The notes beneath the pieces are model-generated. The model worked only from the letters and a program-made list of their open reading frames with translations. It was not told where the DNA came from and did no database searches. A stretch of 64,000 nucleotides of DNA from Botryllus schlosseri (Eukaryota): positions 22,632,001-22,696,000 of the forward strand of contig CM119371.1 in the NCBI GenBank assembly GCA_051294905.1. The letters are read 5' to 3'. Shown in pieces: positions 1 to 25,945 of this stretch. The translations under genes and the position numbers were made by a program. Each line of letters opens with the position of its first letter. The stretch's first letter is position 1.

Positions 1-691
1 CATTCGAAAAAATTCCCAAGTAATCGTAATCGTAATCGACTACTTCCCATATTTAATCGATTTCTTTGTGAAAGAACGATTACTTTTTATTTGTACAGGA
101 CTATGACATAAGCTGAACATTCGTTAACATGAACAAGGATTATACCCAGGCCGTGTTATTTTTGGCATTTCAGGAGCCAGATGCCAAAACTGCCAAAAAT
201 AAAAATTTGAAAATGCCAAAAATAAGCAATTTTTGGCATATGCCAAAAATAACGCGGCCTGCCAAATAGTGTATTTCCTTCATAGTGTTGTGTCAACAGG
301 ACCGCGTTACAAGCGAGAAGAGCGTTTGTGAAAGGCAGGTTTCTTAATCTGGGTCCAGCTCACCCATTAGGGGTGAAAGCATGGTGTCCTAAATGGTGTG
401 GGCACAGCGTGATTGAACGGCTGACTGCATTTGGTTACGTCATACTTTCCATTTGTCCAAAGGCAATTTTACGACCATTTTTGACCGGCTTGTCGAGCAC
501 TAAATTTGATAAAACGGGTATCAATGAGAAGCTGCCGCAGTACTGATTATTAAAATATAAATTATATTCTGCTCATGGAGCTGGAACCCCCAAATTCAAC
601 CACGATCTTTGCATTGTGATCGAGTTGAACATTGTGACGCAACAAACTGTCTGGCTATTTCTGAGCTGCATAGTCTCGTTTTGCCAGACAG

Positions 692-1304
692 TAGGGATGG
701 TGTGAACCTCTGAAAGGTTCAGGTTCGTGTGAATGCGAACCTTTTTGAAAGGTTCTGTGTGAACGCGAACGTCAAACTCATGACGTCACGTGACGTCACA
801 TTGCTAATTTCAACCCTATATTTCAAGATTGACCCCGTACGCTTGCTAGATTTTTACATCAGAAAACGATATCAATCTCATTGATTGATTGAATAAGCAT
901 CATTCGCTGACTACATGTAGTGTATTTCGCTCTTGATATTGTGTGATTGCGGGTCAAGCTCACAGCAGAGAGTCACTAAATATTCATAAGTAAGGCTGGA
1001 TAGGCGGAAGGGTGGATATTTCGAGCAAACCTTTGTAACAAAGCAAGTAAAATTTTTCAGAATGTCAACGTGCATGCTCGTTTAGTGTTGATTGTTTATG
1101 CTGTCAGCGCCATGCATAGATTGGCCCGTAGTTGAAATGCAATAAATTTGAACCAAATATGTTATAATGAACTGAAAATTGTAATATATGAAAAAAGGTT
1201 CACAGTGCAGAACCTTCCAAGGTTCTGTTGTGAACGCGAACCTCAAAATTTCCGAGGTTCACACACAGAACGCGAACGTGAACCTCACGTTCACACCGTC
1301 CCTA
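692..1304 (+). mobile_element. hAT-type MITE, TAGGGATGGTGTGAAC family (internally deleted copy), nested in 147-2126
   Basis: TIR TAGGGATGGTGTGAAC / GTTCACACCGTCCCTA; TSD CCAGACAG on both sides; GTGAAC/GTTCAC subterminal repeats. Confidence 0.93.
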
Positions 1305-1312
1305 CCAGACAG

Positions 1313-1772
1313 TCTTGTTGCGTCAATGTTCTTAAACAAGCTAACCTTCCCGGGACTCTTCCATGCGAGTTGGTAATATTAAAGCCACCTGAAGTGACAA
1401 AAGTCCTCCGAAAATATATCGGTAGACTGAAGGAGAAATGATAGTCGGGCTACTAAATAGAATGTGTTGAGAGACAACACAGGAAACTCCTGGAAAAGGA
1501 TCGGGAAGAAAATTCTTTCCGCGATGAGATCGATGGCACTGGCGAAGTGATCTCTTCATAATGCATGAAAGCCGGTTCGGCCCTCCAAAGATTTTAAAGC
1601 TCTGAAAACCTTTTGTGGATGACTGGCAACATTCTTTCCCTCAACGGCTACTGTTGAAGCCGATATTTCCCAGATTCGCTGGGCGAGAAATGAATTTAGG
1701 AGAAACTTAGCTGACCTGAGTTTGGAAGCACTGTTACAGTGCAAACGATTTAAGTCTATTCAACAGCTGTAA
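1313..1772 (+). pseudogene. Decayed hAT-like transposase C-terminus
   Basis: NLPGTLPCELVILKP...RL, then FKALKTFCG*LATFFPSTATVEADISQIRWARNEFRRNLADLSLEALLQCKRF* resembles the hAT C-terminal dimerisation region. In-frame stops present. Confidence 0.7.
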
Positions 1773-4329
1773 CAATCAGCTGTTGAGCGTGTTTGTTAGG
1801 CTTTTCTTTCTTTTTTTTTTTTGCTTATTGGCACCGAGTCCGATGGATACTGCACATTTTGTGGTTTCGTTTGATATTATTAACCTATGAAATCGTTAGG
1901 TTTTTTCTTCTTATTATTGTTTGTTGGCGCTGATTATACGTGGGTGATGCACATTTAGTGGTGTCTTTTGACAAACTAGCCCAAATAAAGCGTTTTTGTG
2001 ACTAATTCGAGGCTGAAACTATCTATTTAGAGGACGATGCCAAAACTGCCAAAAATAAAAATCGAAAAATGCCAAAAATAAGTTATTTTTGGCAGTTTTG
2101 GCATATGCCAAAAATAACACGGCCTGATTATACCAGTTAGTGATAGCACAAACGTCAGATTTCCAAATGACATTGCTCATTATTACGTCAGAAGTGGCCT
2201 ATTAGCTTTGCTCGTCATTGCGTAAGTATGAAGTATCCAGCTATCCACATATAGTGAATAGATATTCGATGTACATTGGTGTGATTGTAAGAACACTCAC
2301 CCTGCTGTATATCAGGTTATCGGGATAGTTAATCACCACTCTGCCTAGTTTAAAATAGTAACTTATGTATTGATGTTTGGTATGCTTAGTTAAACGCAGT
2401 TTGGCCGTTGCTGCTTGGCGAGCTGTAGGCTTATGTAGCACGAATGTACACCGGACAAAGGTTTGAAATTTTGTAGGCCTACTCGTCAAATAAAACATTA
2501 CGGTTTCCACGACGAAGCATTAAGAATCAACAGCTGTTGATATATCTCATAACCGAGCCGTTTCACGTAATGACTGCTTGTATTACATTATCTGTATTAA
2601 GTTGAAGGCAGAATTTTATGTTCACTATCTCTAATTCTCATATGATTCTACTTGAAACGGGCGCTAATCGTTATTTCACAATGCTTTACTCAACATTTGG
2701 ACCTGTCGCCATAGCCATCGGCTTGTATATCCTCCTCGCCCAGACGTAGCAGGCTAAAAGAAATACTTGCGTGAGACGCAAACACAAATTGCCGTGTCTG
2801 TCCATGCTCTGTGCGTGCCCGGGTGGCATTTGCATTGTGGGCTCAAATTGGACGGACCAGACTATTAAGTCACGCCCACCCAGCGCGGCTATTGACAATG
2901 GACCCATACCCCAAGTTTCGGCCAATGTCATTCATCAGTAGCACACTTTGTGGATTCTCATGTTGGCCGAAACTGCATGTGATTTTTGGTGAGTCGTGGC
3001 GCGGTATTGAGTGGCAGCTAAATGCCTGTTACTATGAATTATGCATGCTTTTTTTCTTGAGGAGGAGACGTATGTATTTCAAAATCAAACTACATAGAGA
3101 CATTTAAATCGCGATGGTCGTAGAACATTTTCAAGTTCATGAAATCTCTCGAAAATAGTCTATAATTTGTGTTGGTTTACGAAATAAGCCTATCTTTGAT
3201 TCCCTTTCGAGCTCTCTCTCCACCCTATTAGGAAATTTTGGGTGCGGCAGTTGCGGACGTAGCAAGAATGAAAATCGTCCTCTATAAAATGGGCAATGGG
3301 TAGGCTACTTTATGACGTAACAAACAAATGTCGCATCTTTTATAAAGAAAGTTGTTATCTCATCAGGCCTCTCAGTTTCAGTGCTATCCATATATTGTCT
3401 TCCAATATAACTTTAAAGATGCAAAATAACTGTAATCGTGAGTAATCGTGATTACTTTTCCAATGTAATCGTAATCGTAATCGACTACTTCCTGATTTTG
3501 CTGTAATCGTAATCGTAATCGCGTCATTCAGAAGTAATCGTAATCGCAATCGATTACATTCATGAAGTAATCACCCCATGTCTGTTTGCTACACTTCCTT
3601 ATTGATCGGACATACATTATTAAATTCTAATATTCGATAAGGCAGAAAGTAAGCAGTGCTAATATATGAACCATGGTATATTTATTGGCATTGTTATGGT
3701 CGTTGATATCAGGTAACCCATTATTGGAAAACACCTGTACCGCATATGATATCTGAGCACTGGTAGGCGGCAGCTCATTGTACACAAATATATATTGTTT
3801 CAGATTATATCAGAATATATCAGATTTCAGATTATAATATAGACTCAATCAAAGTGATTTTTCGCACTAACGTTGCCAGAACAGCGAAATCGTCATGGAC
3901 ATATGTATAATGTGATTCTGAACAATTGACAACGATGACGGAGTGCAAATTCGCCCGAGACAAAATGAAGTACTGGTGACATATAACTGGTTGTGGACCA
4001 TTGATTATTGGCTATGCGTGCCGCAATTGGGGGGAGGCCATATAAATTACTCTTTATCACCCGAAACACAGGCCGGCCTTCATGTCAATTCCTTTGCTCC
4101 CCAGACCAAAATTTTCATATGGATAATATCGTCACTGCCAAATATAAATACAATTACCAACTATATAAAATGTATTCGTAGCAAACCAAGCCCGGTTAAA
4201 ATAGATTCACGAAAGGAAAGGACGTAGTTTATTTTTGTCCTTGATGTTTTTGCGGCATATACACTGACTCATGATATACATACACACGATCTGCGCATAT
4301 GCATACCATGAGTGCATGATGTGCATATG

Positions 4330-5752: not shown

Positions 5753-6408
5753 CACTGGTCAACACATGCTTTTAGACAGACAAAGTAATAGATGTTCGGG
5801 GGATCTGAAGGGTACCGATTCCGAATACGACCTTAGTTTTTTTTCAAATTGGCTCTATTTTTGTAGATATTCCATGAGCCTATTTTGACTAAAATCTCAT
5901 ATTTTGGTTATATGGGCTAGATAAAAATTCGGCTCATCTGCACTATAAAGTGTTTTTCAAGGACAGGTAAATAGCTGTACACTCCGCTTTTATCTTGGAA
6001 GAAAGAACAAATGGTACGAGAGAAAATAAATTTATGATGTGCAAAAGAACAATTTTTAGGCCAGACAAACTGCTTTTTTCGATAGACAAAGATCTCTCAT
6101 CAGGGATCTCGCATCAGGTCATGTTAATATTGATTGAATAACTTAGGACGACATGACTGTTCATCATGGTCAATTCACTATTTATGCGCATTATACAAGT
6201 AGAAGAATCTAGGATTTACTTCCTACCAAATGAAATATTCCATAGTAAATACAATGATTTTATTCTTTTTGGGGGGTATAAATATCTTCTTTTCTAGAAC
6301 CAATCTGGCAAGACAAATGGGATATTCGTAATCAGCAACCTTGAAAACATCCGAAATGGCTCCTAGATGTTCTGCCAAAGAGTGTGGTTTTCATTCTGTT
6401 TAACAGTA
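5753..6408. mobile_element. Decayed non-autonomous DNA transposon, Chapaev3-like (CAC...GTG termini)
   Basis: CACTGGTCAACA left end after tta; degenerate TGTTTAACAGTA right end; internal ccgattccgaatacgacc and ttcgtaatcagcaacc motifs. Confidence 0.5.
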
Positions 6409-6935
6409 TATTATAACAGTTTCAACTGTGTGGTGATAGCTGTCACTGCCCAAGGATGAGAGACTTGGGTTTTCAAAATATCATGGTAAAATATCGTCCA
6501 GGCAAGTCAAAACGTTCAAGTGCGGGATTGAATCTGTCAGAATTATGTCGACGACAACAGAAAACTGCCTAATTACGCTGAAGCCATTATTGGTTACAAA
6601 AATCTGCTCATTACTATCGGGAATCCCTCTTTCCGTCCTTTCACGAACACGTCACGAACCCCAGGACACCAAGTTCGTTACAACACGTCGTTGGGATCCA
6701 TCCAAAAACTAATTTGACTGAACAATATTTATTATGCAACAATTCGTATTCCAGAATCGAAAATACTGTTCACGTAGAAGCAGTATACGAATCAACCATG
6801 ATAAACAGTCCGTGAGCCGGAAAATATGTGAACCATTGCTTTAGCTCATACCATAATACACGAACTATATTCTTATCCAATGTGAGCGAAAGATTAGGTC
6901 ATACATCGCAACTTCTAGAGACGCTGGTTACCTAC

Positions 6936-7299
6936 CTGGCCGCATAAGTTTATGAGGTATTTCCAATTGTACATATTGATCGGTAGATTGAGCAAGTCTT
7001 TCATGCAATTAACCTCCGCTTTGAGTCGACTGAAAGACGCGTAAATCACCGACTCGCTTTTTGATGACTTGAAAACGTTCGGGAAGCATTCCGTCATCAA
7101 TTTCGTGCCTTCAATCAGATTGTTGGGTGATTTCGTATCGACATGAATACAATATATGTGTTGGCTTCGGTAGATTGTGCTTAGTAGTAAAGCAACCTGA
7201 TGGAGATCTTTGTGCATGAGGATGGTGTATGCAATTGAAAACCGTAATTCTTTTGTTGTAGAATATGCCCTTTCTTGAGTTTCACTGAAGAATTGATAT
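6936..7299 (-). CDS. GCNT: GCNT-like paralogue A, coding exon 2 (Branch/GT14 domain N-terminal part)
   Basis: Acceptor ttgtctag|A, then YQFFSETQERAYSTTKELRFSIAYTILMHKD...HIYCIHVDTKS...ECFPNVF...SRLKAEVNCMKDLL...WKYLINLCGQ|gtaggt. These are classic GCNT motifs; exon ends in phase 0. Later exons were not found in the window. Confidence 0.93.
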
Positions 7300-8279: not shown

Positions 8280-9399
8280 TAGGGCGATTTTTTTGACATG
8301 TCAAAATAAGGCTAAATTCTGTCAAAATTGTTTATAAACTAAAACAAATTTCCACCTGCATTTCGTTTGTATCGCAAATGTTTGCATTGTCAGTGAACTT
8401 ATCATTTGACATTTTACAGCCTTCAGTCTACTTTATAGGCCCACCGTTGAAGACGGTCACTGTTAATCATAAACGGCGAAATTAAAAAAAAATGTTTACA
8501 TCGTATTATACTGAACGTACCGCAATATCCGAACTAAAGCAAGATTGCGTGGGCATTGGTTCTTATATCAAGAAGCGCACTTTGAACAAATGTGACGTAG
8601 ACAACATTGTCAGAATGGAGCAACACGGTGTGTCACCAGCAGTGTAAGCAAAACTTCAGTGTTGCCGGCCAACAACTGCTACTGTTGAAAAACGTTTGTT
8701 TGTTTGTTTTGAGAAATTCATGGTGTTTGTCGACTACTATTGTCATTTACACCGGAGCAATTTTCTTCATCTATATTCCGCAGCTGCCGACCTGTAGCCC
8801 GGCTCACTTCGCTTTTTATAAGACACCGCCTACACGGATGAGATGACGAGGAGGAGACTCGATATACCTCCAACACTTGGCCAGGAATTCTGGAGTCGAC
8901 CTCGGTCGGAGTCAAAACCGCAACCCATTGGTGTTGCAGCTGTGTCTTATACCACTAGGCTACGCCATCTCGCCACAGTGCTGTTGAACGTTCTTTCTCC
9001 ATTCCTGACAAACTACTTAGTAAGAACATACACGTTCTACCCGAGAATGTAGGGAAGTATCTTTAGTTGTACTACAGCAAATTTTAATTATTTCTACCAT
9101 GACGCGTGATGTCATAATGTGATAATGTGATTCGTCATGGGTCCAGACTTCGTTAAGATAGTTCATTCATGTTACAATATGTCATTTTATCATTAACAAA
9201 AGTTTTACAGGCCAACAGCCTTCGTCAGGATATACAGTTACAACCAGAAATAAAGATAAGAAGTACAATTCTAACATTATGTGTAAGAACACCTAATTTA
9301 AATACATGAGGTCAAAATTGAGTTTTTAAAGTCGGAAAATGTCGAAATTTTGATTTAGTAGGTCGAAATCTCCACTCTTGGGTCAAATAAATCGCACTA
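8280..9399 (-). mobile_element. hAT-type MITE, TAGGGCGATTTT family, in intron 1 of GCNT A
   Basis: TAGGGCGATTTT / AAATCGCACTA ends; TSD GTTGTACC/GTTGTAAC; reverse-complement homologous to 28459, 55115 and 62837 copies. Confidence 0.88.
8694..8974 (-). mobile_element. tRNA-derived SINE, family B, nested in the 8280-9399 MITE
   Basis: GGCGAGATGGCGTAGCCTAGTGG head and (CAAA)n tail. It interrupts sequence that is contiguous in the other MITE copies; ctgttgaa is duplicated around it. Related fragments at ~43140-43300 and ~45960-46050. Confidence 0.8.
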
Positions 9400-9462
9400 G
9401 TTGTAACACAGGCAATAAAAAAACACGACTATTCATTCCGCCACATGTATATCTCATTTCAC

Positions 9463-9842
9463 CTTTTCCTGAATTCTTCACAACCTTCCTGCAGTAATAG
9501 GCTCATGACTTGTTCATCAGTCGTGACATCTGAAGTAGATTCGACGTATGTGTCGGAACTTTTCTTTCCATCATCTATCAATTGATAGCATTCTTCCAGA
9601 GTTAGATTTCCTGAATTTATGACTTCTTCCACTCCCTGCCTCGTACGGTGAGTAGTCGTCGCGTTATATATCATTTTCGGTCGAAAGCTGCCCCCATATT
9701 CGCTTTTATAAAAGTGCACGTCCTTTGCATTCATAATTGATTTGACGTATTGCCGGTGCAGTAACAAGCGGCAGGATATTATTTGAGTTATTAATAAAAC
9801 AACGCCACAGCCAATGAACAGTATGATCAGAAATCGGGTCAT
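9463..9842 (-). CDS. GCNT: GCNT-like beta-1,6-GlcNAc transferase paralogue A, coding exon 1 (type II TM anchor and stem)
   Basis: ATG at 9842 gives MTRFLIILFIGCGVVLLITQIISC (signal anchor), then stem with the two conserved Cys (EECYQL, EGCEEFRKR). Donor AG|gtgaaa at 9462, phase 2, same position as in paralogue B. Confidence 0.85.
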
Positions 9843-10186
9843 TTTGAGACTGATAAAACTTTTAGACTGGCGATTAGATTGACCTATATTGATGAGAAAA
9901 TATAAGAAGCTAATGATTATTGCGGGTGGAGCAATCCAAGTTTCCACTGGCAAAGAAATTACGGCAGCTTGGCTTACAGATATCGCAATTTCATGAACTG
10001 TGACGGTGACGAGAAACTGCAAAACTGCGAGCATATATATACGTTCTGACAGGAAAAACGAATACAGAAATTTTACAGCTCACAAACATGATCTCATACT
10101 CATGTCTCGCCACCATGCACAGATGTAGGACTAATCATACTTATGTTTCCTGATGCTCATGCGTCACCATATTCATGTGTTCCAAT

Positions 10187-10857
10187 CAAAGTTAAATCAA
10201 TTACATTAATTCAGTTCAAGAACAATATAAATTACTGTTTTAATTACATCACAATTACAATTGCTCCATGCTATAAATATCAATTTACAATTACTATTAA
10301 ACGTATAATGGATCAATCATACATCCAACTTCGGTAAAATGGATCTCACAAACGTAGCGACGAAATTAGCAACAATCACAAGCTATTCATGTTTCAATCC
10401 TGATACGTAGACTACCCTATATTTATAAAAAAACTCAAACGTTGTTGAACTATTCCCATCACGTGTTCTGAAAAATACAAACATAAGAAAAAATTTCTAA
10501 GCGACTGTTAACAACCAGAAGTTTAAGCGACAGGCAACGACTAACAACGGACAGGCTACAAGACAGGCAATGAAATACACAGAGCTGGCAAATAAAATGT
10601 GATTGGTAAGGCATCAGCGATATGTATAATCGCGATGGGGTGTGTAAAATTAGGATAAATGTAAATGGGAAGAAACTCCTGCTAACTACAAATTACAAAA
10701 TTTTGGTTTGCATTTTCATTTTAGCTTACTCAAAAACTGTTGGATTACGAATATACAAAAGAAAAATGCTTCAAGTAGAATTACAATACAATTACAGTTA
10801 CAAATGTAATTCATTACATTCATCTCAATTATAAATTATACAGTCGATCCAACTCTG
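10187..10857. mobile_element. Decayed MITE with (AATTAC)n subterminal repeats
   Basis: caaagttaaatcaattac left end, gatccaactctg right end; AATTAC arrays near both ends; no clear TSD. Confidence 0.5.
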
Positions 10858-11924
10858 GTGCCCGCTAGTGTTTTCCAAAATATGGAAAATTTGTAAAACT
10901 AGGATTTAATATCTCATTGGCGTTTCTACAAACTGAGCTTTCACAACAGAGCATTTTTATAATCCTTCGTTTTTTCGCGACCCTTAGGTGGCAGTCATTG
11001 TTATATTGTCTTCAAATATGTTCTCAAACATCAAGGATTTAAAAAAGATAACCAAGTAGTCGTCATCGTATTCATATTGTGCCTATCAGAAGTAATTGTA
11101 ATTGTGATTGCAATCGATTACTTCGAATCACTGATCAATCAATTACACAAAATACGAGTTAGCTCGTCCTCTGTAGACCAGGGGTCACCAACGCGCTGCC
11201 ATCGGGTGCTAGGTCGGCGTTAAGGACTTGATGGGTCGCCACCAATTGCACAAGCAAATATTTCAATGAGAGCTTTGAAGGACGAAGTGGATAAGGGTTT
11301 CATGCGGAAAGCAGATGAACATAAGTCACTCGACCCTATGGAACATGCAAACGAAGTTTTTGAACGAGGGGAGAGGCGTTGATCGTCTTTTCTTCCTGCG
11401 GATTCGAAAGAGAATGTAGGTAATATCCCCAAGTCCCGACACGAGATTGGTGTTTCCGCGCCCATTGCGGCAATGCAACTGAACTATGTGGAGCTTGCGC
11501 AAGTCCCTGGAACATTTTTCTATATACGGAGCAAAAACCCTGTCGATTTCTAGGAATGTAGGAAATAAATTAATCATTAACGGGGAAACGGCAGAATTAC
11601 CTGCAATAGTCCTTAAGGTAATCAATACTGAAAGGTTGGTGATCACTACTATAGACAGAGTTAAAAATGATGGAGAATGAAGATAACAAAACAAACAAGT
11701 ATTAAGTAATGTTAATCTTATGTTCACCTTCTGGGGATTCGCACCATCCCAACTGACTGACCTGAATTATTTTTATGACTTTGATACTTTGCGGTGCTCG
11801 TCAAGTCGTATATTATGATATCTATAATAACTCTCGGGAATATCTAACTGATTAACATTTCCTGCGGTTCGATTTGTAAACTCTATCTTGTCGTTGAACA
11901 GCATTGCCGCCAAGTGAATGCACA

Positions 11925-13050
11925 ACACAGTTTATTTGACACATGCCAAATAACAAATATAGCTTAATTTTGGCGTTCTCTTTATTTTTGGCAATTTTGG
12001 CATCGTCATGAATTCATATTTATAGACTCGAGTTAAACATGTAAAAAACTTCAGTTTAGACTTTCTTAAGAAGATGAAGTCAAAAAACATACAGTATCCA
12101 CACTGCACCAACAAAAAATCCCAATTGAAAACGATGTTGAAAACCAAATTCACCCGATACAAAACTGTGGGCTTCTGCACTATCTAATCTCAATAGTAGA
12201 TTCGCTATGCGTGAAAAATTACCGGCATCCTCACATATCCTATTACTTATGATAAAAATCTAAAAGGGTTGCTGATATGCTTGGATCACAGCCTTGACTA
12301 TAACGGACTAATGGTTCGAAAGCATGAGTGACTTTAATAATCAAGATAATATGAAAAGTTATCCACTCCGAGGCTAGGAAAAATCTCGGAAAGACTGAAT
12401 GTATATCCGTTTGTATGGTACGTACAGATTGGGACGCCTTTGCCCCAAGTATGTTCATTGATGGAACTATATCCCCGTTGGACAACGTGACATAATCTAT
12501 CAGTGATTGAGCAATGAGCATGCAGACATTTTTCAATTGCAAGTTAATGGATGAATGAAATATGGTATATGCACAACGAATTAAAAATGTGACCGTGTGA
12601 CAGCTATATGATGTCACAAAGTGTAAGAGCAGTGAAAACAGGAAAATGACTTGTCATTGCGCTACATCCAACAATATGGACTCTCTATCACAGATTCTGA
12701 CATACGCTGATCACTACACCTGAACAGGTACTCTTGCGAGCAGACATCGTCTACTTCCTAATTGCTGGCTTGATCAATCCACAGATTGACCGCCAATCTA
12801 AATTTAGTCGCTGGACATTTTGTTCTCGAGCCTAAGATCCCCGAAGAATATACGGACCCTAAATTAGGAATCCTGCATTACACACTTGATATGTCGCTTT
12901 ATATAAACTCCTGTCAATTATTGATGACATTTCATCAAAAAGTTTAATAGAAGTCTATATTTGCAAAAAGCCTTATTTTAGGCATTTTAAAATTTTATTT
13001 TGGACTGTTTTGGCATATGATTACCAAAATCCCACAAATAGCTGTAAATA
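11925..13050 (-). mobile_element. Old decayed hAT element inside left palindrome arm (ends related to 147-2126)
   Basis: Reverse complement of 11925-12008 resembles the right end at 2034-2126; 12960-13050 resembles the left end at 147-240. Confidence 0.6.
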
Positions 13051-14061
13051 GATCTATACCAATACTAAATTCCTTCACCTATACAATGCGAATGCTAGTT
13101 AACCGGCCCAATAACTGCTACTTAGCAATAACTCTCATACGATTTATGAGGTTTCCTGTTGGCTTCATATCAACCGTGGTCGCTACCGATTCAACTAATC
13201 TGTCGTCGGCAAATATCAATGAACTGTTATAGGGTACTTGGTATCGATTTTGTATTGAAATTTATTCATGCGCCAAATGTATAATTGTACGTGAAGTTTA
13301 GTGTTGTTTTCTTTCGCTTATGTCTTTGATGGATATGTATGTATGCCTACAAGCAAGTTGTATTTAAAATTTGTAACGCCCTAAAATAACCAATATTCAA
13401 GGTGTTTAGGAGTTACACTGCTTTACCAAATAGATTAACATTGATGAGTTCGTTCATTCCAGGAACAGATATCCCGACTGCGGATCACATGCGGGTAATT
13501 GCGAACATATTAAATCAGATTGATTTCACAACTCACTATATCTATTGTGATGATACGTCAGAGAATAAAGCAGTGGTTCTCCACCTTGGGTCCGTGATAC
13601 AAATTTTTGTACCGCGAAGCACGTACTTAAAAGTTAAAACGATCCCGCAATTACCGGAATTTTGGATTTTTGGAATGTAATAATTTTCAGGCAACTTATT
13701 TTCCAAACCAAAATAGTAGGTGATTCAAAATTATTTCGTTAATCAAAATAAAGTAGAGTATTTTTGCTCGAATATATTCAGATTGAAGTTTTAGTTGCGC
13801 TTCGGGCGATTCAGTGTTACTACATTTCTAGACTTTATTGTGCGTATATGCGCACTCTCGAACAAAATACGAATAATGTTACAGTGATAAGTGTACCTGT
13901 CTTCGCAATTTTGAGAGAATCGCTTGATTCCGTTGGTATGCTTCAGTGTATGGTAGTGATATCTGCAGATGCACCATCGGCATTTCGGCGCTGACCATTT
14001 CATTTCGTTTCGGCTACACCCAGACACTGAAAGGTTTCGCCAACATGCCACTCCATGAAGT

Positions 14062-14374
14062 TTTTGCCTATTTAACACATACAACAGTGGTGTTTATCGC
14101 CAATTAAGGTCATGTACACTACGACAATGATATTAGTGATGTTGGATCTTTGCTTTTCGTATTCTTTCTGGACGAGTTCAACCCCACACTCGCGCACTTC
14201 CAACTTCGGTCTCTCTCTCTCTCTCTCTCTTCCATGCATCCGGACTTGTACTTTACTGGCGACTTCCTACTGGCGCGGCTCACCATCATACTGGGCTTTT
14301 TGGGACACTGTTTTGGCAGTGAGGATAGCGATGAGGAGTCCAGAAAAACCTCCAACACACAGAAGTTGGTTCCA
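14062..14374 (-). mobile_element. 5'-truncated SINE inserted in left palindrome arm only
   Basis: 12-bp TSD ACTCCATGAAGT (14050-14061, 14375-14386); the empty site is present in the right arm (~15219-15230); shares core with SINE family A. Confidence 0.85.
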
Positions 14375-16249
14375 ACTCCATGAAGTGAGCTGCCGAGAAT
14401 GGCAGTAGCGATAAAACCGTGGCCCGAAATCATCTAGGCGAATGTTGGACGAAACCTTCGATATTGATCTGTCTAGACACGGAGGAGGAGTCCAGTCAAA
14501 AATTTCACGCTTTAATACCCGGTCTTATATTACTTTCATTACCTCTTCATTATTTTTATTACTATTTGAAACTCGGCTGGTTAGCCTATTCCCGTGCCAT
14601 TTGGATCACCCTTCCACGGACGCTAGTTTGAGAAATCCAGAGTCATGTATACGCTAGCATCGTAGCAACACGAATCCTGTAATTAGAGGCAAAAACTGAG
14701 TTACACCCCTCATACAGGTTACCGGGTTACCTTGATATAATGATATATATATTGAAAAAAATATTTCGGAGCTTAACATGAAACAACGGAATATATCGTA
14801 CGGCCATTTTGAGTAAGTTGAATTGTACTTAATAGTGTGGGGGAAATAACCATTGCGAAAGCAATTCACCTTGCTGTAGCCGCCTTGAAAACGATGCTAT
14901 AATTCGATCTCGAATATCGAATTTCATATCCTGCAACACATCTGACCTTCAAATCCAAATATTATATTCGGGAGCTACCCATATCGAAATGCTCGAAATA
15001 AATTCATATCCGGTCACAATTTTCATATTCATCAAAATTTAATCACCATTCGATTTTCGGAGAGTAAATGAAAGTATTAAATGCCGGGTATGAAAGCGCG
15101 AAATTTTGACTGGACTAGTCCTCCGTTCCTAGACAAAGCAATATCGAAGGTTTCGTCCAACATTATCCTAGATGATTTCGGACCGCGGTTTTATCGCTAC
15201 TGCCCTTTTTGACAGCTCACTTCATGGAGTGGCATGATGGCGAAACCTATATGTGTCTGGGTGTAACCGAAACGAAATGGAGTGATCAGCGCCGAAATGC
15301 CGATTATCCATTTGCAGCTATCACTCCCCTACACTGAAGCATACCAACGGAATCAAGCGATTTTCACAAAATTGCGAATACAGGTACGCTTATCTCAGTA
15401 ACATTAAGCGAATTTTGGAAAAATAAAATCCCGAAATGTAGTAACACTGAATCGCTTGAAGCGCAACTAAAAATACAAAATGAATAAATATGTACAAAAA
15501 TACTCTACTTTATGTTGATTAAAGAAATAATGTAGGGGCACCTTCTAGTTAAGTTTGAAAAAGTACGTTGCCTGAAAATATTTATACCATAAAAATCCAT
15601 AATTTCAGTAATTGCGGGATCGTTTGAACTTTTTAGTACGGGCTTTGCGGTCCATAAAATTTGTGTCGCGGATCCCAGGTTCAGAACCACTGCTTTATTC
15701 TCTGACGAATCATCATAATGGATATAGTGAGTTTTGAAATTAATCTGATTTAATATGTTTGCAATTACCCGCATTTGATTCGCAGTCGGGATATCTGTTA
15801 CGGGAACGAACCAACTTAATTAATATTGTCCTATTTGGTAAAGTAGTGCAACTCCTAAACATCTCCAACATTGGCTATTTTAGACGTTACAATTATAACT
15901 GAAAGTTGCTTAGAATTTTCCTAGTATTACCAAAGTTATCAACAAGTAACTATACATATCCATCAATGACGTAACCGACAGAAAACGAAATTCAACTCCA
16001 CGAAGATTTATACATTCGGTGTATGAAGAAAGTTCAATACAAAACCAATACCAAATACCCAATAACAGTTCATTGAAGTTTGCCGATGCCAGATTCGTTG
16101 AATCGGTCGCGACCACGGTTTATATGAACCCAACAGGAAACCTCATAAATCTTATGAGAGTTATTGCTAAGTAGCAGTTAGGTGGCCTATTTACTCGCAT
16201 TCGTAGCGTAGGATATTATGTGAAGGATTTAATATCGGTATTGATGTAT

Positions 16250-17415
16250 ATATATAGTTATTTTCGGCATTTCGGGAATCAAATGCCAAAACAGCTGAAT
16301 ATCTTTGGAAAATGACAAAGATAAGGGTTTTTTGAAATATAAGCTTCTATGAAACTTTTCGATAAAATGCCATCAAGAATTGATATGAGATTATATGACG
16401 CGACAGAGCAATTGTGTGAAGCACAATTAACTTAGGGCACTTGAATCCTTCGGAGGGCCGCAGACTACCTGCTAGGCGGTCCATTAAAGGTGAAGGAAAA
16501 TCTTATGCTCGAGGACAAAGAGTCCAGTGATTAAAACTGAAATTACGGCCAATCTGCGGATTGATCAAGCCAACGATTAGGAAATAGATGATATCCAGCG
16601 ATTACGAACTAGATGATCTTTTCCTGCAAGAGGTTCAGGTAGTGATCAGCATATTTCGAAATCTGCGATAGAGAGCCCTAATTGTTGGATTTAGCGCAAT
16701 GACGATAGGAATGCTTCTGTATTCACTGCTCACGCATTTTGTGACACCATGTAGCTGCCAAACGCTGGCCAGGGTACATTTAGCTTATTGTGCATATACA
16801 AAATTTGATTCACCCTTCATCTTGAATTTGAAAAATGTCTGCATGATAATTATTTAATCACTGACGAGTTGTGTCAAGTTGTCCAATAGGGACATTGTCT
16901 CATCAATGAACATCCATACATCCATATACTGCAAAGGCGCCCCAATCTATACGTAATATGCAGACATATATATATACAATCAGTCCTACCCTAGATTTTT
17001 GTTTGCCGCCGGGTGGATTGATAATTTTTCATAAGCCACTCATCCTTTGGAACCATTGGTTCGAGTCAAGGCTGTAATCCAAAGGTATCAGCACCCCTTT
17101 TAAATTGTTAGCATAACTATTGTGATCTGAGAGGATGGCGATAGTTTCGATTTGATCGACAATTGAGATTACATATTCCAGAAGCCCGCGGTTTTGCATC
17201 GGGCGAATTTGGTGTTCAACATTGTTTTCAATTCTGATTTTTTGGTGGCGCGGTATGGATACTGTATGTTTATTGACTTCCTCGTCTTAGAAAAGAACAA
17301 ACTGGATCGTTTTACATGGTTAATTCGAGTCGATAAATATGAATTCACGGCGATGCCAAAATTGGCCAAAATTAAATGTTTTGGTCATTTAGCATATGCT
17401 AAAAATAACCACACT
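16250..17415 (+). mobile_element. Old decayed hAT element inside right palindrome arm (mirror of 11925-13050)
   Basis: gttattttcggcatttcgggaatcaaatgccaaaacagc matches gttatttttggcatttcaggagccagatgccaaaactgcc; right end cgatgccaaaattggcc...gcatatgctaaaaataac. Confidence 0.6.
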
Positions 17416-20105
17416 TGTCTCTATAGCAAGACACCTGCATGGTTATGAATGAGCCATATGATTCAACGACAAAGGTATTGAATTCAGCGCTTGCGTAGCT
17501 TATATTGGTATAATATTGAAAACCTGTTAGCATGTTAGGTACATCTGTACTCCACTCAGATAACAAATTAATATGCATTTCAAGCATTTCATTTTCTGAC
17601 AACAGCCAGGTAGAGGGCCGTGTAGTTACTCGAAGACTTCACGTACCCGCGATGTACTAAGGCCTTGCGGCCCCTCGTCGTCATCCTGGTCCGTACCGGA
17701 TTTTCACTGGTGTTACAAATAATTGATTGATTAATTGATTTACGGCTTTCTTCTGGAAAAAGGAGCAGTATCATACATGAAGCGACTGCTATTCCAACGC
17801 ACGGATAAACCCGTCGATGCATATTCCTGTATGCTCGCATACAATTTGGATCACTAACAAATATGCTTACTTTTGTGTTACCTATTATTTCATATTTACA
17901 AACCCAGAGAGATCGATTTGCTCGATTAATTTTAATTGTTACTACGTTATCTATTTCGAACTGGTCTGCAATGGTTTGGAACAGACGGCCCGCGAAATCT
18001 ATTTGATGAACCATAGATCTTGCAGTTGCCGACAAACGTCACAGATAGGCATGTCTGCATGGTTTACGATCTTAAACCGTATATCACTTTTACGCTTACC
18101 TCCAAAGTAACATATCATTTCTAAATAGATTAAATAATAATATCATAGTCACTCGAGAGAAACGTTATAGTCGACATTTACATTAGCCGTGACATAGCAT
18201 CGACATGCACGCTTTCAGTTTGATAGAATAGCTAGTCTTGTTGCGTGAATGACATGGAATTAGTGAGATATATGTTCATTCGCTATGAATGTAGGGGGTG
18301 TCAAACATACGGCATACATGAAGAATAAAGTAGTTGAAAAAATATCCTTCAAATATCTGTGGTCGCACAGCTGCACCGCTTTGTACACAAAAAAGGTTCC
18401 CGACTTCCAGAGAAAGCCAAAATTAATTCCTATTTCTGCCTTTACGGATAAATCTCTTGTATTCGTCGCAACGCATAGGCAGGGCTAACACCAGAATATG
18501 ACTAAAACATTATAGCCAGGAAGCATAGAAATATATCAACTTCACATCGCCGTTAAAGCAATGATTTTGTGGTTTACAACTGTATTGCACCGGTCACTGA
18601 TCTTATTCTTGGTAATTCCGTTGTTTGTGAAGAAAGGTGTTGCGACAATAGAACCACTATGATCCCTAATGTACTGATATGTACGTACATCGGCTTAATA
18701 ATATAGTGAAAAACCAGTACATCGATTTTAAAATAACATTTCAAATTTTTGACTAGTGCGGCCCGCGAGCTATCTGAAGGTTTGAATCCGGCCCGTGACG
18801 CAAGTTTGAGTTTGACATCCAAGGTCTACGTATTTTTGACTAAAAACTGTGTACCAAGAGAGTGGATTCCTACAGTTATATCCAGCAGTGGGACGCATTT
18901 CCGGGCTATTGTACGCTGATGGTACGCGGAAGTGTTTTGAATGTCACGCAAATAACTTACCGGTGAGTTTCCTATACATAGATCGACAACAGTTTCGCTT
19001 TTTGTACACCCAAAATACCCAAGGTGTGTTTGCCAGGCAGTTATAAGTGGATTGTGTAATTTGCATACGGAGTTTTAGCATTGGTGTTATCGCCTATACA
19101 AGTGGTTCTCAACCGGGGGTACACGAAGCATTTCCTGGGGGTACGCGAAACCTCTAAATTCGCAAAATGGTTGATAGCCTATTTTTTATGTTAGGGAAGT
19201 CATGAGGCAGTTTGTGCTTCATTACGTCTAAAATTTCATGACTCACATCAACAGAATGGCCGTCTAAGATGAAATATCCTACTGTGCAAACTCATTTCAA
19301 TTGCCAAAAGTCTACTGATACAAACATGTTGCTGTTTAGAGGTGTTTTGTTGGCGTTAGTTGAAAAAATTAAAGTGGAGTAGTAAGTTCGATCAGGGTGA
19401 CAGGTGACTTCGAAATGTTCTAAAAATCCATTTTCCTCTGTGATATACACAACCCCCATTCCAGAATAACTTTAAGATGAGCTGCTACAAAGAAATGACT
19501 AGGCATGGTGTTATATGTTCATTAGGAAATATATTTCCCTATTGTGGTGCCGTTGCGATCGTACCCAATGGTGTTATGAGGCGTTGCCCGTTATAATTAC
19601 ATTCGCCACCACCTATCTTTGTTGAAATGGATTTTCGGCACTATCGAATCAAAGGCGCGGCGTTTCAAGACACGACTCCGTATTAAATAAATGCAGCTAC
19701 AGAATTCGCTACCAATTTCGCTACAAAAATTCATTTTGTTGCTGTTTATAACTAGTATACAGCTAATATTTGCACAAGAAAAGTAACTGTTACAGGGTGA
19801 TTTGACTAAATATGACACGAAACTTGCGGGTCTGCGGGGATCCGGGAGATCAAAAGCAGGTCCGCATAGACGAAAAAGTTGATAACCACTGATAACCATT
19901 TGTCCTGGAAACTCTCAACTAAGTGTGGACTTTTTTACCCGCCAGGAATCTGATATTCATTTCACAGACTTATTTTATTACTAATGCTTAGAGTTTTATA
20001 ATTACGTCATAATTGCGTAAATACTTTCCGAAAAACATATTGTATGGGCCTACGGACGATGACCACCAGTTATAGCCGACGTATGCGATATGGGATGGCT
20101 GGAAC

Positions 20106-21106
20106 TAGGGATGGTGTGAAGCTCTGAAAGGTTCAGGTTCGTGTGAACGCGAACCTTTCTGAAAGGTTCTGTGTGAACGCAAACTTGAACCTTATGACGT
20201 CATATAACGTCATATTGAGAACTACAACCCTACATTTCAGTAAAGTGATAGCCGAGATTTATGTACACCATACCTAGCGACGACTCAGGCCACATCATTC
20301 CGCAATGCTGGAGTACATATTGCAGTTTTAAACGTCGCTAAATGTATCAACTGGCGTAATTAAATCATATAATAATCCCATAAAATCAATATCTTCCGTC
20401 GCTTTGTCAACAATGTCGACGAGGGAATATAAACATACGCCTTAATGGTCTAGGGCAGACCGGATAATGTATCCGACATCTGAGTATCGCTGCGTTGATA
20501 TTGAGCAAAGTGTAAAACGGATTTCTACACTTGCGACCGATATTACCCCATTAACAAGCAGTAGCCAACACCCCACGGATTTGGTTTTATGGTACAATGA
20601 ACATATAAAATCAAGATTGACCCGGTACGCCTACTAGAATTTTTCACATCAGACAACGATATCAACTTCATTGGTTGGTTGAATAAGCATCATTCGCTGA
20701 CTATAGCTACATGTAGTATATTTGGCTCTTAATGCAGTGTGGTTGCGAGTCAAGTTCACAGCAGAGAGTCCCTAAATATTCTAGCATACTTTTGTAACAA
20801 AGCTCGTAAAGTTTTTGAGATTGTCAAGGTGCATGCTCGTTTAGTCCTCATTTATCATGCTGCCAGCGTCATGCATATAGTTTCCCGCAGTCCAAATGCA
20901 ATAAATTTCAATCAAAGATGTAATAATGAAGTGAAAATTGTAATATAAGAAAAAGGTTCACAGTGCGAACCTACCAACGTTCGTTTGTGAACGTGAACCT
21001 TTAAATATCTGAGGTTTACACACATAACGTGAACGTGAACCTCACGTTCACTATAGATAACTAACCTACGTAGGTTAGTTATCTATATACGTTCACATAA
21101 TGCCTT
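20106..21106 (+). mobile_element. hAT-type MITE, TAGGGATGG family, upstream of GCNT B
   Basis: Full-length homologue of 692-1304; TSD GCTGGAAC/GTTGGAAC; right TIR interrupted by a 36-bp palindrome. Confidence 0.88.
21052..21087. repeat. 36-bp perfect palindrome with flanking target duplication
   Basis: TATAGATAACTAACCTAC|GTAGGTTAGTTATCTATA flanked by cACGTTCAC / tACGTTCAC. Confidence 0.9.
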
Positions 21107-21337
21107 GTTGGAACCATCGAAATAGTCGGTTCAACAGCTATAGTACGTAGAGATTTCGTCAAAGAAGCTATATATTTGTCCTATATATTCAATTGTTCAT
21201 GTCAATCCACTGTGACGTCACAATTGAACACTCGTGACGCCAAGGCTTGAAAAAACATGTTTTAAACATGGGCCTTGTTTTAATTATGTTTGTTTTAAAT
21301 TGGTTTTTGTTTTAAATGCAACCCTAATGGATGAGAT

Positions 21338-21696
21338 ATGGTAAAATGTACCTTGAAGAGGCTCGTCGGTGTGACGATTATTGCAGTATGTGCGATGTCA
21401 GGATTAATAGCTCGCTACGAAATACTAGTCCGTGGGCGGCAAATCCTGCCAACTTGTCGTTTCCTACAACAATCCGGTATAAGCCCATCATCGGCCGCTG
21501 CGTTGGCAAAAGTTGAAACCAGGAAAAGACGAGGCTGGGATGACTCTACGGTAACCGAGCCTTGTAGAGCTGTGTTGAATGGGAATATCAGTCGAATCAA
21601 CGAAGTTGCGAAAAATGGCGATTTTCCATGGCGTGAAAGCGTTGAGGATGCAGAGATCTCAATGATGGCGAAAGACTGCGAATTATTGAAACGAAG
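21338..21696 (+). CDS. GCNT: GCNT-like paralogue B, coding exon 1 (TM anchor and stem)
   Basis: MVKCTLKRLVGVTIIAVCAMSGLIA signal anchor; EPCRAVLNG and KDCELLKR stem cysteines; donor AG|gtatgt at 21697 (phase 2). Confidence 0.88.
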
Positions 21697-21795
21697 GTAT
21701 GTTATAAATGTTATAATTTCTGCCGCAACTGTAGCTATATTCGTACTCGACTGTTTCAGTCGATACGAATGGATTTTATGATCAATACTCTATAC

Positions 21796-23819
21796 CAGTG
21801 GTTCCCAAACTTTTTCGGTGGCAGGGCCAAATATAAAATTTCAGAGTACGGTCGGGGCCGCACGAATACCAGGGCAATGAAAGGTACCCAAAATCGTCAC
21901 CAAAATATGAAAATTGGCATTGTTCCGATCATTTGCTTGACGCCATTGGCCATTGTGTTGCCGCGCTCCCGTTGTTCAGAACAATCAACCTTTGCTGGCT
22001 ATTTCGGAGTAGTTTTATTGCCCTGGCGAGATTTTGATTCGTATTTTTGGAATCAGTGCGACACATTGCTTTTGATAAACACCGACATATCAAATTATTC
22101 GGCCGCTTGGGTCGCGAGCTATAGGACTACCAATTATGCTGCTTTTTGTCGGCTAAGTAGTACGCATCTCGGCGTATTCAATCGTGAGTCACTTGTTGCA
22201 CATCTATCCGTAAATTAGGTATCAATACCCAGGGCCGTAATAGCAGCCCCCTAAAACGTTGCTCTTGGGCCCCCCATGGGGTGATAAACCGAACTTCGAA
22301 GCCCCGCAGACCCCCCTCAGGCTAGATGGCTGTTTATCACTATTTATCATCTAAATGGGGTGCCCGTTTCAGGCAGCTTCTCTCGACTAATCACGTGAAG
22401 CGCGAAAAAATTCTATAATTTATGATTGAATCGGTCAATATAATCAGGAATTGCATATATATTGGTGTCAATTTTTATCCTCTCTCTGCTCACGTAGTCA
22501 GATTGACCGGTTGAGCCGAGTGAGTTGTGTTTGAAAAGGTAGGACCACTAAATAATAATTAAACATCTTCGGGCGTATACCCGTTAGCAGGAACGAAACA
22601 GCACTTCGTCAGGCCCCACAAAACACTTAGGTCTTGAACTCCCATAGGGTGATACACCGACCCCCGTCCCGTTGCTTGCTTCTGCCACGAAATCAGGATC
22701 ACCGTTAAGTGAGCTAGCGTGGAACGCGAAAATTTTCGATAATCCAAAATAAAATAGGTCAATAAGATCGAAAATTTCATATATATTGCTATCAATTACT
22801 TGTCCTCTCTGCTCACGTAATCAGATTTACCGGTAGAGCTGAGTGAGGGGTCTTAGAAACTGTAGGGCCCGTAAAAAATAATTAAATATATTTGGACGGG
22901 CGGACCTGTTGGTACGACTTCGTTACATGATGTTATTTCGTGACCTCCAGTCTGCTATATCAAAAAATATAGAATCGCCAAACGTACTGAGCTAAAAGAT
23001 GCACACGATTCCAAATTGGTATTTCTTCAGTGGCATATAATTCTTCCCTGCGGGATGGCAGCCTATTTGTCTCGTGAGGTTCAGATTGCCAAGACAGGAA
23101 CATTTGGCGCCGGTCATGTAGGCGCCTATGGTCAATTATACCTATACGTATTTTGTTTATACATAACGAAGTTATTGGTCAGCATAAGGGCAGTCCTTTT
23201 CGGTCAAGGTTTTCTCGCTGCCGATCGTTCTGGCACACTTCTTGGAGTCGCATGTTGCATGGCCTCAAAATTTATATGTATTCGTGCGTCGTGGCGCGGT
23301 AATGACCAACGCCGATATGGTCACTTCTACAAATCTTGCGTATTTTATCTTGGTCGAAGAGTACCCAATATATTAAGGTACTTGAAAACTTGAAATCGAG
23401 CCTGGCGCGAATTTTTTTTGAAAAAGTTGCATAAAATTTCATAAAATACTCTATAATTTATGCTAATTCACTGAATAATTTTGGGCCCCCTTGGAGCTCG
23501 CTCCCCCCAATTGGGGGGCTTGTAGTGCGGCAGTTACGGCCCTGTCAATACCTATATCTATACCTATATATATAGGTACTGCTCGTTCAACTGGAAAGTT
23601 AGGGCACATTGCATTGAAACAGCAGTGACGTAATCTTAGCAGTCTATTCACAAATTTCCTGCAATCCTAATTGAAAACTCCAGACTCCAAGCCAAACAAG
23701 AGTATTTTATAAATATAATTTTTTTTTCATAAATCGATTTCTCAATATTTTTGTGGGGGCCGCAAGACGGCTAGCTTGGGACCGTATGCGGCCCTCGGGG
23801 CCGCGGTTGGGAATCACTG
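21796..23819. mobile_element. hAT (Charlie/Buster-type) non-autonomous element in GCNT B intron 1
   Basis: CAGTGGTTCCCAA / TTGGGAATCACTG ends; perfect TSD CTCTATAC; GGGCCGC subterminal motifs. Confidence 0.88.
22230..23544 (+). mobile_element. hAT-type element, CAGGGCCGTAA family, nested in 21796-23819
   Basis: CAGGGCCGTAA / TTACGGCCCTG; TSD TCAATACC; internal ~330-bp-period duplication. Homologues at 36439-37138, ~43724-44690 and ~35060-35400. Confidence 0.9.
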
Positions 23820-24961: not shown

Positions 24962-25945
24962 TAGGGATGGTGTGAACGTGAGGTTCACGTTCGCGTTCTG
25001 TGTGTGAACCTCGGAAATTTAGAGGTTCGCGTTCACAACAGAACCTTGGTAGGTTCTGCACTGTGAACCTTTTTGGTAAATTGTAATTTGCACTTCATTA
25101 TAAGATCTTTGGTTCAAATTTATTGCATTTCAACTGCGGGTCACTCTATGCATGGCGCTGGTATAGCATAAAGAATCAACACTAAACGAGCATGCACCTT
25201 GACAACCTTTAAAGTTTTACTTGCTTTTTTGTTACCAAAAATTTCTCGAAATATCCAGCTTTCCATTCGTGAATATTTAGTGACTCTCTGCTGTGAGCTT
25301 GACCCGCAATCACACAACATCACGAGCGATATACGCAGTCAGCGAATGATGCTTATTCAACCAATCAATGACATTGATATCGTTTTCTGATGTAAAAAAT
25401 CGAGCGGGCGTACGGGGTCAATCTCGACTTCATATCTTTACTGTATCATTAAAACCAAATCCGTGCGATTAAGGTGCTGGCTACAGCTATATAACTTGTT
25501 GTTTATGGTATCGGTAGCGACTATAGAAACCCGTTTTACACTCTGCTCAATATCAATGTAGCAATACTCAGACTCCGAACACATTGTCCGGTCTGGCTAA
25601 GACCATTAAGGCGTAAGCTTATATTCCCTGGTAAGTCCTCGTCGAAATTGTCGGCAAAGCGACGGAATGTATTGATTTTATGAGATTATTGTATCCTTTG
25701 ATAATCGCGGTTGATACATTTAGCGACGTTTAAAACGCCAATATGTACTTCAGCAATGCGACATTATGTGGCCCGAGTCTTCGCTAGGTATCGTGTACGT
25801 TAATATAGGCTATCACTTCATTGAAAGATAGGGTTGGAATTAGCAATATGACGTCACGAGGTTCACGTTCGTGTTCACACAGAACCTTTCAAAAAGGTTC
25901 GCGTTCACACGAACCCGAACCTTTCAGAGGTTCACACCATCCCTA
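24962..25945 (-). mobile_element. hAT-type MITE, TAGGGATGG family, GCNT B intron 1
   Basis: Perfect TIRs TAGGGATGGTGTGAAC; perfect TSD GAAAAAAC. Confidence 0.93.

Follow-up and report, generated by a model that had tools for sequence, protein, structure and literature searches.

A decayed 5.5-kb palindrome with hAT-like elements in its arms between two GCNT genes of Botryllus schlosseri

A 5.5-kb mirror-image structure between two head-to-head GCNT genes was confirmed in the window, i.e. the whole 64-kb stretch of Botryllus schlosseri DNA that was analysed. On the best reading of the comparisons made here, the palindrome would resemble in form a composite insertion or 'killer' locus of maize and would now be a relic. 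On balance it is probably an old inverted duplication generated by a transposon and now decaying. The literature searched, which had most subscription papers outside its coverage, contained no paper on this locus.

Geometry and composition of the palindrome

Self-BLAST of the window gave minus-strand matches of 11981-14061 against 17376-15219 and of 14375-14546 against 15230-15061. When 11980-14546 was aligned globally to reverse-complemented 15061-17376, the arms were identical at 1789 of 2175 columns (82.3%; K2P distance 0.20), with 32 gaps and an identity of 77-89% per 200-bp window. An earlier note had described arms of about 2.4-2.65 kb, judged by eye to be about 80-90% alike, around a spacer of about 515 bp centred near 14800; the self-BLAST and alignment agreed with this, giving arms of about 2.63 kb (left) and 2.36 kb (right) and a spacer of 514 bp. 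The same note had set the outer limits at 11890 and 17471. These limits depend on an isolated 11-bp inverted match (11888-11898/17462-17472), 23-45 bp outside the element termini; continuous arm alignment begins further in, near 11921-11980 and 17376-17417. Matches of at least 11 bp arose by chance in 13 of 3000 random pairs of 100x100-bp windows. The features are as follows.

11921..14546, no strand, left arm of the palindrome (self-BLAST and alignments; faint homology may reach 11888)
14547..15060, no strand, spacer of 514 bp (centre about 14803)
15061..17417, no strand, right arm of the palindrome (self-BLAST and alignments; faint homology may reach 17472)
11921..13050, minus strand, decayed non-autonomous hAT-like element of the left arm, 3'-type end outward and degenerate 5'-type end inward (scores 108 and 79; shuffle maxima 34 and 33)
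16249..17417, plus strand, hAT-like element of the right arm in mirror orientation (scores 73 and 70; shuffle maxima 32 and 36)
13051..14546, no strand, inner part of the left arm, non-coding and partly multi-copy
15061..16248, no strand, inner part of the right arm (identity with its left counterpart 84.7%)
14062..14374, minus strand, 5'-truncated tRNA-derived SINE, confined to the left arm and flanked by a 12-bp target duplication (14050-14061/14375-14386) and an empty site in the right arm
147..2126, plus strand, younger family member used as reference, with 22-bp identical termini and a perfect 8-bp target site duplication (TSD; 139-146 and 2127-2134)

The ends of the arm elements were scored by local alignment to the ends of the reference element, against shuffles. 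All four ends were found in mirror order, with scores of 70-108 and shuffle maxima of 32-36, and the terminal 27-mers matched the reference at 15-20 of 27 positions. A 12-base subterminal motif of the family has 14 copies in the window, where 1.2 would be expected; eight of these lie in the reference element and four at the four ends of the arm elements. A whole element of this kind makes up the outer 1.13 kb of each arm, the palindrome ending within about 35-55 bp of its outer terminus, and the transposon connection of the arms is stronger than the earlier note had supposed. Judged by their termini and the TSD length, the arm elements are probably non-autonomous and hAT-like, and could also belong to a P/Galileo-type or other group with 8-bp TSDs. 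The hAT assignment is our presumption from the TSD length and the terminal letters, the 22-bp terminal inverted repeats starting with CAGG. Like non-autonomous hAT elements of the Ds kind, the arm element shares termini and subterminal motifs with a relative in the window that has 22-bp terminal inverted repeats and an 8-bp TSD. A 66-codon stretch of the reference element (1572-1769), which we take to resemble a hAT C-terminus, gave no significant match in Pfam, NCBIfam or a homolog search. The reference also carries an extra internal 3'-type end at 180-261, and a single 8-bp TSD surrounds this unit, indicating that the family does move as composites. The right-arm element is flanked by a possible decayed 8-bp duplication (6/8), which is near chance: 6 or more matches within ±3 bases have a probability of 14.5%. 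For the left-arm element no flanking duplication reaching 6/8 was found.

The left arm contains a 325-bp gap relative to the right arm, which consists of the SINE and its duplication. This insert was shown to be a tRNA-derived SINE that is younger than the arm duplication. Relatives of it occur in the window near 52788-52875 and 5259-5295, and A/B-box-like motifs were read by eye; ARAGORN found no tRNA gene. In the inner arm DNA, 13101-13208 resembles a 58-codon (174-bp) tandem unit. One frame of the right arm has as few as 13 stops over 396 codons, which places it between percentiles 1 and 5 of a best-of-six null, and the 306-codon core of this frame gave one match among 1.84 billion representatives (E=3.5e-5, about 35 residues aligned), to an unnamed protein with three 58-residue repeats. 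This was read as translated tandem DNA and not as a gene. Exons or a third gene within the arms were likewise rejected: neither the 12 arm frames (stops as X) nor the six spacer frames gave a Pfam match above the cut-off, and an NCBIfam search gave nothing close to its cut-off. The best protein-atlas value was 0.90, with recognition below threshold, and was counted as no evidence. An Rfam search of 9000-22000 gave one match, at chance level. A promoter scan of the spacer gave chance-level counts under a bacterial model, which is not applicable to this host, and no arm-like symmetry was found inside the spacer. Scanning for further copies by pattern gave 0 in metagenome contigs (two patterns) and 0 in viral contigs (one pattern).

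Arm divergence and age relative to the GCNT genes

The arms differ by 181 transitions and 205 transversions. Seven of the 32 gaps are multiples of three, codon periodicity was absent in 14 of 14 ungapped blocks, and the arms look as though they are decaying without visible constraint. Homogenisation by arm-to-arm conversion had been suggested earlier and was not borne out. The longest identical run was 33, against 33.1 under permutation (p=0.47), and no conversion tracts were detected (fragment statistic p=0.10; best 100-column window p=0.22). Ongoing conversion was rejected on these tests and because the arms, 18% apart, are less alike than alleles (5-7%). Divergence in the element part of the arms exceeds that in the inner part (20.5% vs 15.3%, p=0.002; non-CpG 18.5% vs 14.2%, p=0.012), a contrast that a single copying event would not predict.

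The exons of the two flanking genes are located as follows.

9463..9842, minus strand, first coding exon of the left GCNT gene, membrane anchor and stem (splice donor read from the sequence)
6936..7299, minus strand, exon 2 of the left GCNT gene, start of the Branch domain (Pfam match)
21338..21696, plus strand, first coding exon of the right GCNT gene
26128-26485, ~27510-27636, ~27957-28286 and ~31150-31390, plus strand, further exons continuing the right GCNT gene

Pfam Branch (PF02485) was found in exon 2 of both genes. Across this exon the paralogues share 52% identity at the protein level and 56% at the DNA level, with differences at 12 of 16 fourfold sites. Exon 1 gave no alignment above shuffles (score 22 vs shuffle mean 25), as expected from the remark in the earlier note that the first exons barely align. 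Exons 3-5 of the left gene were not found in 1-6935, and the window holds only its exons 1-2. Also, that note's claim that the non-coding arms are far more alike than the GCNT exons proved correct (82.3% vs 56% in exon 2 DNA). Its suggestion that the palindrome is younger than the gene duplication agrees with an arm distance of 0.20 against saturated fourfold sites. The palindrome centre lies about 790 bp left of the midpoint between the two ATGs. The gene-side gaps outside the arms showed no mutual similarity (blastn, E<=1), and no mutual homology was found between the two first introns. These comparisons support the view that the palindrome is far younger than the GCNT duplication and unrelated to it. 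It would sit between the two genes because the intergenic space is rich in repeats. If the structure is a neutral relic, it also cautions against assigning a palindrome to the duplication of the head-to-head paralogues that flank it.

Origin of the inverted duplication

The arm alignment is unbroken across the junction of element and inner DNA, and the same terminal bases have been lost at the inner end in both arms. This common junction and common loss indicate that the two element copies were not independent insertions and that one unit was copied once. In the proposed course of events, a 1.13-kb, putatively hAT-like non-autonomous element adjoined 1.2 kb of other repeat-derived DNA, the arrangement still seen in both arms. 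The resulting 2.3-kb unit would have been copied once, in inverted orientation, 0.5 kb away. The transposase of the family may have started at the intact outer end of the element, either through alternative transposition in which re-replication was aborted or because the composite unit hopped locally, and the palindrome would stop at this end because the event began there. Since then the arms have diverged to their present K of about 0.20 and the SINE has entered the left arm alone. A search for a TSD around the whole palindrome gave at best 4/8 and 5/8 at the two candidate boundaries, which is chance level; an old copy may have lost it. Fresh composite insertions carry one such TSD, and its absence counts against the proposal. 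The outer 11-bp match hints that the copied unit reached slightly beyond the element end, which also counts against it.

In maize, alternative transposition of Ac/Ds gives composite insertions that have transposon copies at their borders and may take in DNA flanking the donor, and 'Ac killers' and Mu killer are described as inverted duplications of 2.1-2.5 kb and 1.8-3.9 kb in maize alleles (10.1101/2020.01.07.897926). According to the same source, these killer loci are fresh, have 8-bp TSDs and duplicate the 5' ends of an active element, and dsRNA and siRNA were shown (10.1101/2020.01.07.897926). The Botryllus palindrome likewise would be a kilobase-scale inverted duplication of DNA-transposon terminal sequence, bounded by transposon ends and next to host genes. 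It differs from the loci so described in that its arms have diverged by 18%, its outward ends are 3'-type and its element is non-coding; nor was a TSD seen, or RNA detected in the two bulk libraries, each read in part.

Read depth across 9000-22000 was far above the single-copy level in most of 30 bins. The spacer bin 14642-15075 was near single-copy, with a depth of 14.5 in DNA run X1 and 111 in X5, although X5 has three contigs at one spacer site. In X5 the bins of the inner arm part reached 163-1077, against about 85 for single-copy DNA, so this part is not plain single-copy host DNA; short embedded repeats (40-bp matches) may have inflated its depth. No empty-site joint was found among 15 of 967 joints.

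The main rival, possible though rather unlikely, is that the whole palindrome is a decayed mobile foldback element, whose 2.3-kb arms would be long terminal repeats that include the hAT-like element and whose relatives would lie elsewhere in the genome. A foldback element is known from Ciona. Long terminal inverted repeats around a middle domain are indeed present, both the outer and the inner arm parts were above single-copy depth in two DNA runs, the outer 11-bp match could be a terminal remnant, and the 174-bp-unit similarity is reminiscent of satellite-bearing arms. Decay of about 10% per copy could have blurred a TSD, but none was seen at either candidate boundary. Against a foldback element also stand the near single-copy depth of the spacer, the possible inflation of the inner-part depth and the two 3'-type outward ends, since a unit of this kind would, going by Ac/Ds work, move poorly. 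A tandem-repeat domain was not found either, TRF giving only (TC)n in the SINE and a 25-mer of 1.9 copies in the right arm, with no autocorrelation peak. A Polinton-ended palindrome was rejected, the end motif being absent at the arm ends and the arms only 82% identical. Tetris has inverted arms of up to 1,735 bp and a non-coding middle (PMC4079207), and both Tetris and Tm1 carry tandem-repeat domains within their arms, are flanked by 8-10-bp TSDs and occur as several copies in differing contexts (PMC4079207, PMC3169594). These elements share with the Botryllus palindrome the long arms around a non-coding middle; for the latter, in contrast, no tandem-repeat domain, TSD or multiple-context copies were found.

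It is improbable that the palindrome is the ancient inverted duplication core of the GCNT pair, in which past conversion retreated centrewards and then stopped, the element having been copied from arm to arm by conversion. Such a core would account for an axis between two inverted paralogues, the faint homology just past the outer end of the element and the drop in divergence towards the centre (20.5%, 15.8%, 12.4%; Spearman p=0.007). However, neither segment showed a trend of its own (p=0.21, 0.30), a tract signal was lacking, and at the end of the element identity drops sharply, from about 83% to the background level. The unrelated gene-side gaps and first introns, and the partly dispersed inner DNA, also argue against it. 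The earlier note had allowed that the arms might simply be copies of a dispersed element, each with its own TSD. The arms are indeed largely repeat-derived, but two independent TSD-flanked insertions did not emerge, and the chance tail-to-tail insertion of one dispersed 2.3-kb composite element is extremely improbable. Both arm parts appear multi-copy, and the arm divergence of 18% is similar to the 15% between MITE copies in the window. On the other hand, the low apparent copy number makes a 0.5-kb spacing unlikely without local hopping, and the inner ends lack a terminal repeat or TSD and share the same end base.

Possible function of the palindrome

Should the transposon-made duplication be a neutral relic, it would be an unremarkable though neat example of DNA transposons building local inverted duplications in a repeat-rich sea-squirt genome. 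That the locus functions, as a Mu-killer-like source of hairpin siRNA against the hAT-like family or as a mirrored regulatory block for both GCNT genes, is distinctly improbable. A read-through RNA of 14375-15230 would fold at -343 kcal/mol (z=-24.7), as expected of any palindrome. The arms retain 37 perfectly paired 21-nt windows (77-88 with G:U allowed), include the terminal motifs of the family and are both present in at least two individuals. However, they have tolerated the 325-bp insertion and 31 other gaps and are about 20-25% diverged from the ends of the younger family member. The G:U-compatible changes show no strand bias (91 vs 90), which we would expect under selection; on such bias in hairpin RNAs the literature searched, with most subscription papers outside coverage, offered nothing usable. 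Arm variation was also not below that of adjacent flanks. In the second individual, X5, both arms carried 231 differences in 3903 letters (5.9%), and the spacer-spanning piece with two adjacent flank pieces 129 in 1919 (6.7%; p=0.25). When the flank set was enlarged by two X5 pieces lying further away, the arms were less variable than the flanks (5.9% vs 8.0%, p=0.001), an observation that runs against neutral decay.

We would likewise give little credence to a fossil or active animal 'transposon killer', in which a neighbouring promoter would drive a 2.3-kb hairpin from the transposon-made palindrome, siRNAs would silence the hAT-like family in the ascidian, and the locus would have been fixed for that, possibly co-regulating the GCNT pair. 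Small RNAs mapping to both arms would make this a chordate killer-type case with which the generality of the transposon-silencing route could be tested; they would matter the more since killer-type loci of natural origin have been documented in maize (10.1101/2020.01.07.897926). Mean arm RNA depth per strand, SINE bins excluded, was 0-1.3 in X8 and 0-1.1 in X12, weak evidence as 6% and 13% of the runs were read. The bin of the left GCNT exon 1 also had a depth of 0 in both, and the blank in the arms is correspondingly weak. The highest arm values in these bulk RNA runs came from bins touching other repeats, and 94-97% of the placed RNA reads continued into unlike sequence. One loose end, at 14370 in the SINE, led into what we take to be a tRNA T-loop-like motif.

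Structure and origin of the palindrome

The palindrome between the two GCNT paralogues described in the earlier note was found to be real, its arms (11980-14546 and 15061-17376) aligning with 1789 of 2175 columns identical (82.3%, K2P 0.20) around a spacer of 514 bp. The outer limits drawn in that note depended on an isolated 11-bp match, of a length also seen in 13 of 3000 random pairs; firm alignment started 30-90 bp further inward. The arms were compared with a younger reference element at 147-2126, whose termini are identical over 22 bp and which is flanked by a perfect 8-bp TSD. Its two end types recurred, decayed, at four places in the palindrome.

Element ends in the palindrome, with scores (shuffle maxima, 32-36)
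11921, 3′-type end, outer edge of left arm, score 108
17417, 3′-type end, outer edge of right arm, score 70
13050, 5′-type end, inside left arm, score 79
16249, 5′-type end, inside right arm, score 73

With both end types present in each arm, the outer 1.13 kb represents one complete non-autonomous element. The length of the TSD and the terminal letters are the grounds for calling it hAT-like; a search for a transposase match yielded none confirming this label. No gene or RNA family could be recognised in the inner 1.2 kb. Only the left arm carries a tRNA-SINE fragment, 313 bp long and flanked by a 12-bp TSD; its empty site was visible in the right arm, indicating insertion after the duplication. 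In both arms, about 105 bp (13101-13208 and 16084-16191) could be translated into a match to P0011, an unnamed protein of three 58-residue repeats, which suggests, at the level of translation, that this segment may be akin to a 174-bp tandem unit.

The arm-to-arm alignment was unbroken across the junction of element and inner part, identical terminal bases were missing from the inner element end in both arms, and the inner boundary lay at a matching position in both. The palindrome thus derives from one event, not from two insertions, and is a single-origin, transposon-derived inverted duplication. Mainly because the palindrome ends at the 3′ terminus of the element, or no more than about 35-55 bp from it, this duplication may have been produced by a transposase-initiated event. 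The element at 147-2126 is likewise a composite: a single TSD encloses an additional, internal 3′ end. Two results count against such an event: no TSD was found around the whole palindrome, and divergence was higher in the element part (20.5%) than in the inner part (15.3%). A neutral relic made by a transposase mechanism is, on balance, slightly favoured.

Age of the palindrome and variation in a second individual

Exon 2 of the two GCNT paralogues showed 52% protein and 56% DNA identity, and 12 of 16 fourfold sites, a small number, differed. Set against the arm distance, these values support the earlier proposal that the palindrome is younger than the gene duplication; the paralogues are much older. 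The nearest named homolog of right exon 2 was a Styela clava protein (65% identical), which makes an ascidian the most likely source of the window. The gene-to-arm gaps of the two sides showed no similarity to each other, and the first introns had a single 13-bp match in common. All exons of the right gene were found in the window; exons 3-5 of the left gene were not, so either the left gene is truncated or one of its introns exceeds 6.9 kb.

Four of 24 runs were compared with 9000-22000 at 80% likeness. Long pieces from the DNA run X5, a different sample, covered both arms and the spacer.

X5 pieces over the palindrome
12021-13947, left arm, 102 differences
14443-15162, spacer and both junctions, 51 differences
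15333-17335, right arm, 129 differences

Alleles thus differed by 5-7%, one third of the arm-to-arm distance of about 18%, which excludes ongoing homogenisation and places the age of the palindrome at roughly three times the allelic depth. No conversion tracts between the arms were found either, and ongoing arm-to-arm conversion is not supported. Among the longest 16 X5 pieces, variation was 5.9% in the arms and 6.7% in adjacent pieces (p=0.25); when two more distant pieces were added, the flanks reached 8.0% and the arms were less variable (p=0.001).

Depth, which refers to contigs from the runs and is not true copy number, was 79-93 for single contigs in X5, 111 in the spacer bin and up to 163-3837 in arm bins, the top values containing SINE or other repeats; inner-part bins without SINE gave 163-1077. 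The values in a second DNA run, X1, were distributed alike. Some sequences related to both arm parts therefore occur at other loci, which is mostly not so for the spacer; the inner values may be raised by short embedded repeats.

In X5, the bin over the first exon of the left GCNT gene (9434-9867) had a depth of 4.3, against about 85 for single-copy sequence; in X1 its depth was 11.8, about one haplotype. The left gene may be truncated or variably present, but such depth holes can be filter artefacts. An X5 piece over the right first exon (21272-21741) had 47 differences in about 470 letters (10%), above the non-coding arms, and represents a divergent allele or a paralogue.

Possible function and known counterparts

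Substitutions in the arms appeared unconstrained, without codon periodicity and with gaps of every length, and G:U-compatible changes numbered 91 vs 90. In the bulk RNA runs X8 and X12, of which 6% and 13% of the reads were analysed, coverage fell on the SINE and other high-copy repeats and hardly at all on the arms; the left GCNT exon-1 bin was also zero, so this result has no positive control. A transcript across the palindrome is predicted to fold, and 37 perfectly paired 21-nt windows are still present; a hairpin role is therefore conceivable but unsupported.

In its structure the palindrome follows the composite insertions and killer loci of maize (10.1101/2020.01.07.897926), but membership requires dsRNA and siRNA. 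It resembles foldback elements (PMC4079207, PMC3169594) in outline only: no tandem domain or TSD was found, and it has no demonstrated family. Polinton-type palindromes differ in their ends, which are absent here. The palindrome most likely is a neutral relic; leaving the mechanism aside, a repeat-derived origin and lack of function can be accepted with considerable confidence.

Other repeats in the window

The transposon at 147-2126 has one perfect 8-bp TSD and three ends: a 115-bp miniature (147-261) supplies a 5′ and a 3′ end, and a second 3′ end lies 1.8 kb further on. This arrangement suggests a composite that transposed as a single unit. Within it lie a nested MITE at 692-1304 and, at 1572-1769, a short remnant resembling a transposase. 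The MITE belongs to a very high-copy family, with a depth in X1 above 200,000 and termini that are internally repeated; other copies were found at 20107-21051, 24962-25945 and 41590-43077, the last apparently consisting of one copy inserted into another. Members of the tRNA-derived SINE family were observed with tRNA-like heads at 5179-5351 and 52783-52955 and, 5′-truncated, in the left arm (14062-14374); SINE sequence was well represented on both strands in both RNA runs. The gap right of the palindrome holds an element of about 790 bp (19101-19891), whose termini are of the Charlie-like hAT type, judged by their motif; similar short termini occur at 13566-13587 (left arm) and 21791-21812. 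At 50246-51616 (-) lies an ORF of 456 codons for a LINE reverse transcriptase (Pfam RVT_1, E=6e-36), and at 32342-32859 a recent 260-bp tandem duplication (93% identical). Three further dispersed repeat families had several copies each.

Dispersed repeat families in the window
Family 1: 8314-9356, 28616-29342, 55157-55991, 62847-63658
Family 2: 22224-23544, 35061-37107, 43724-44578
Family 3: 38323-41392, 58392-59307
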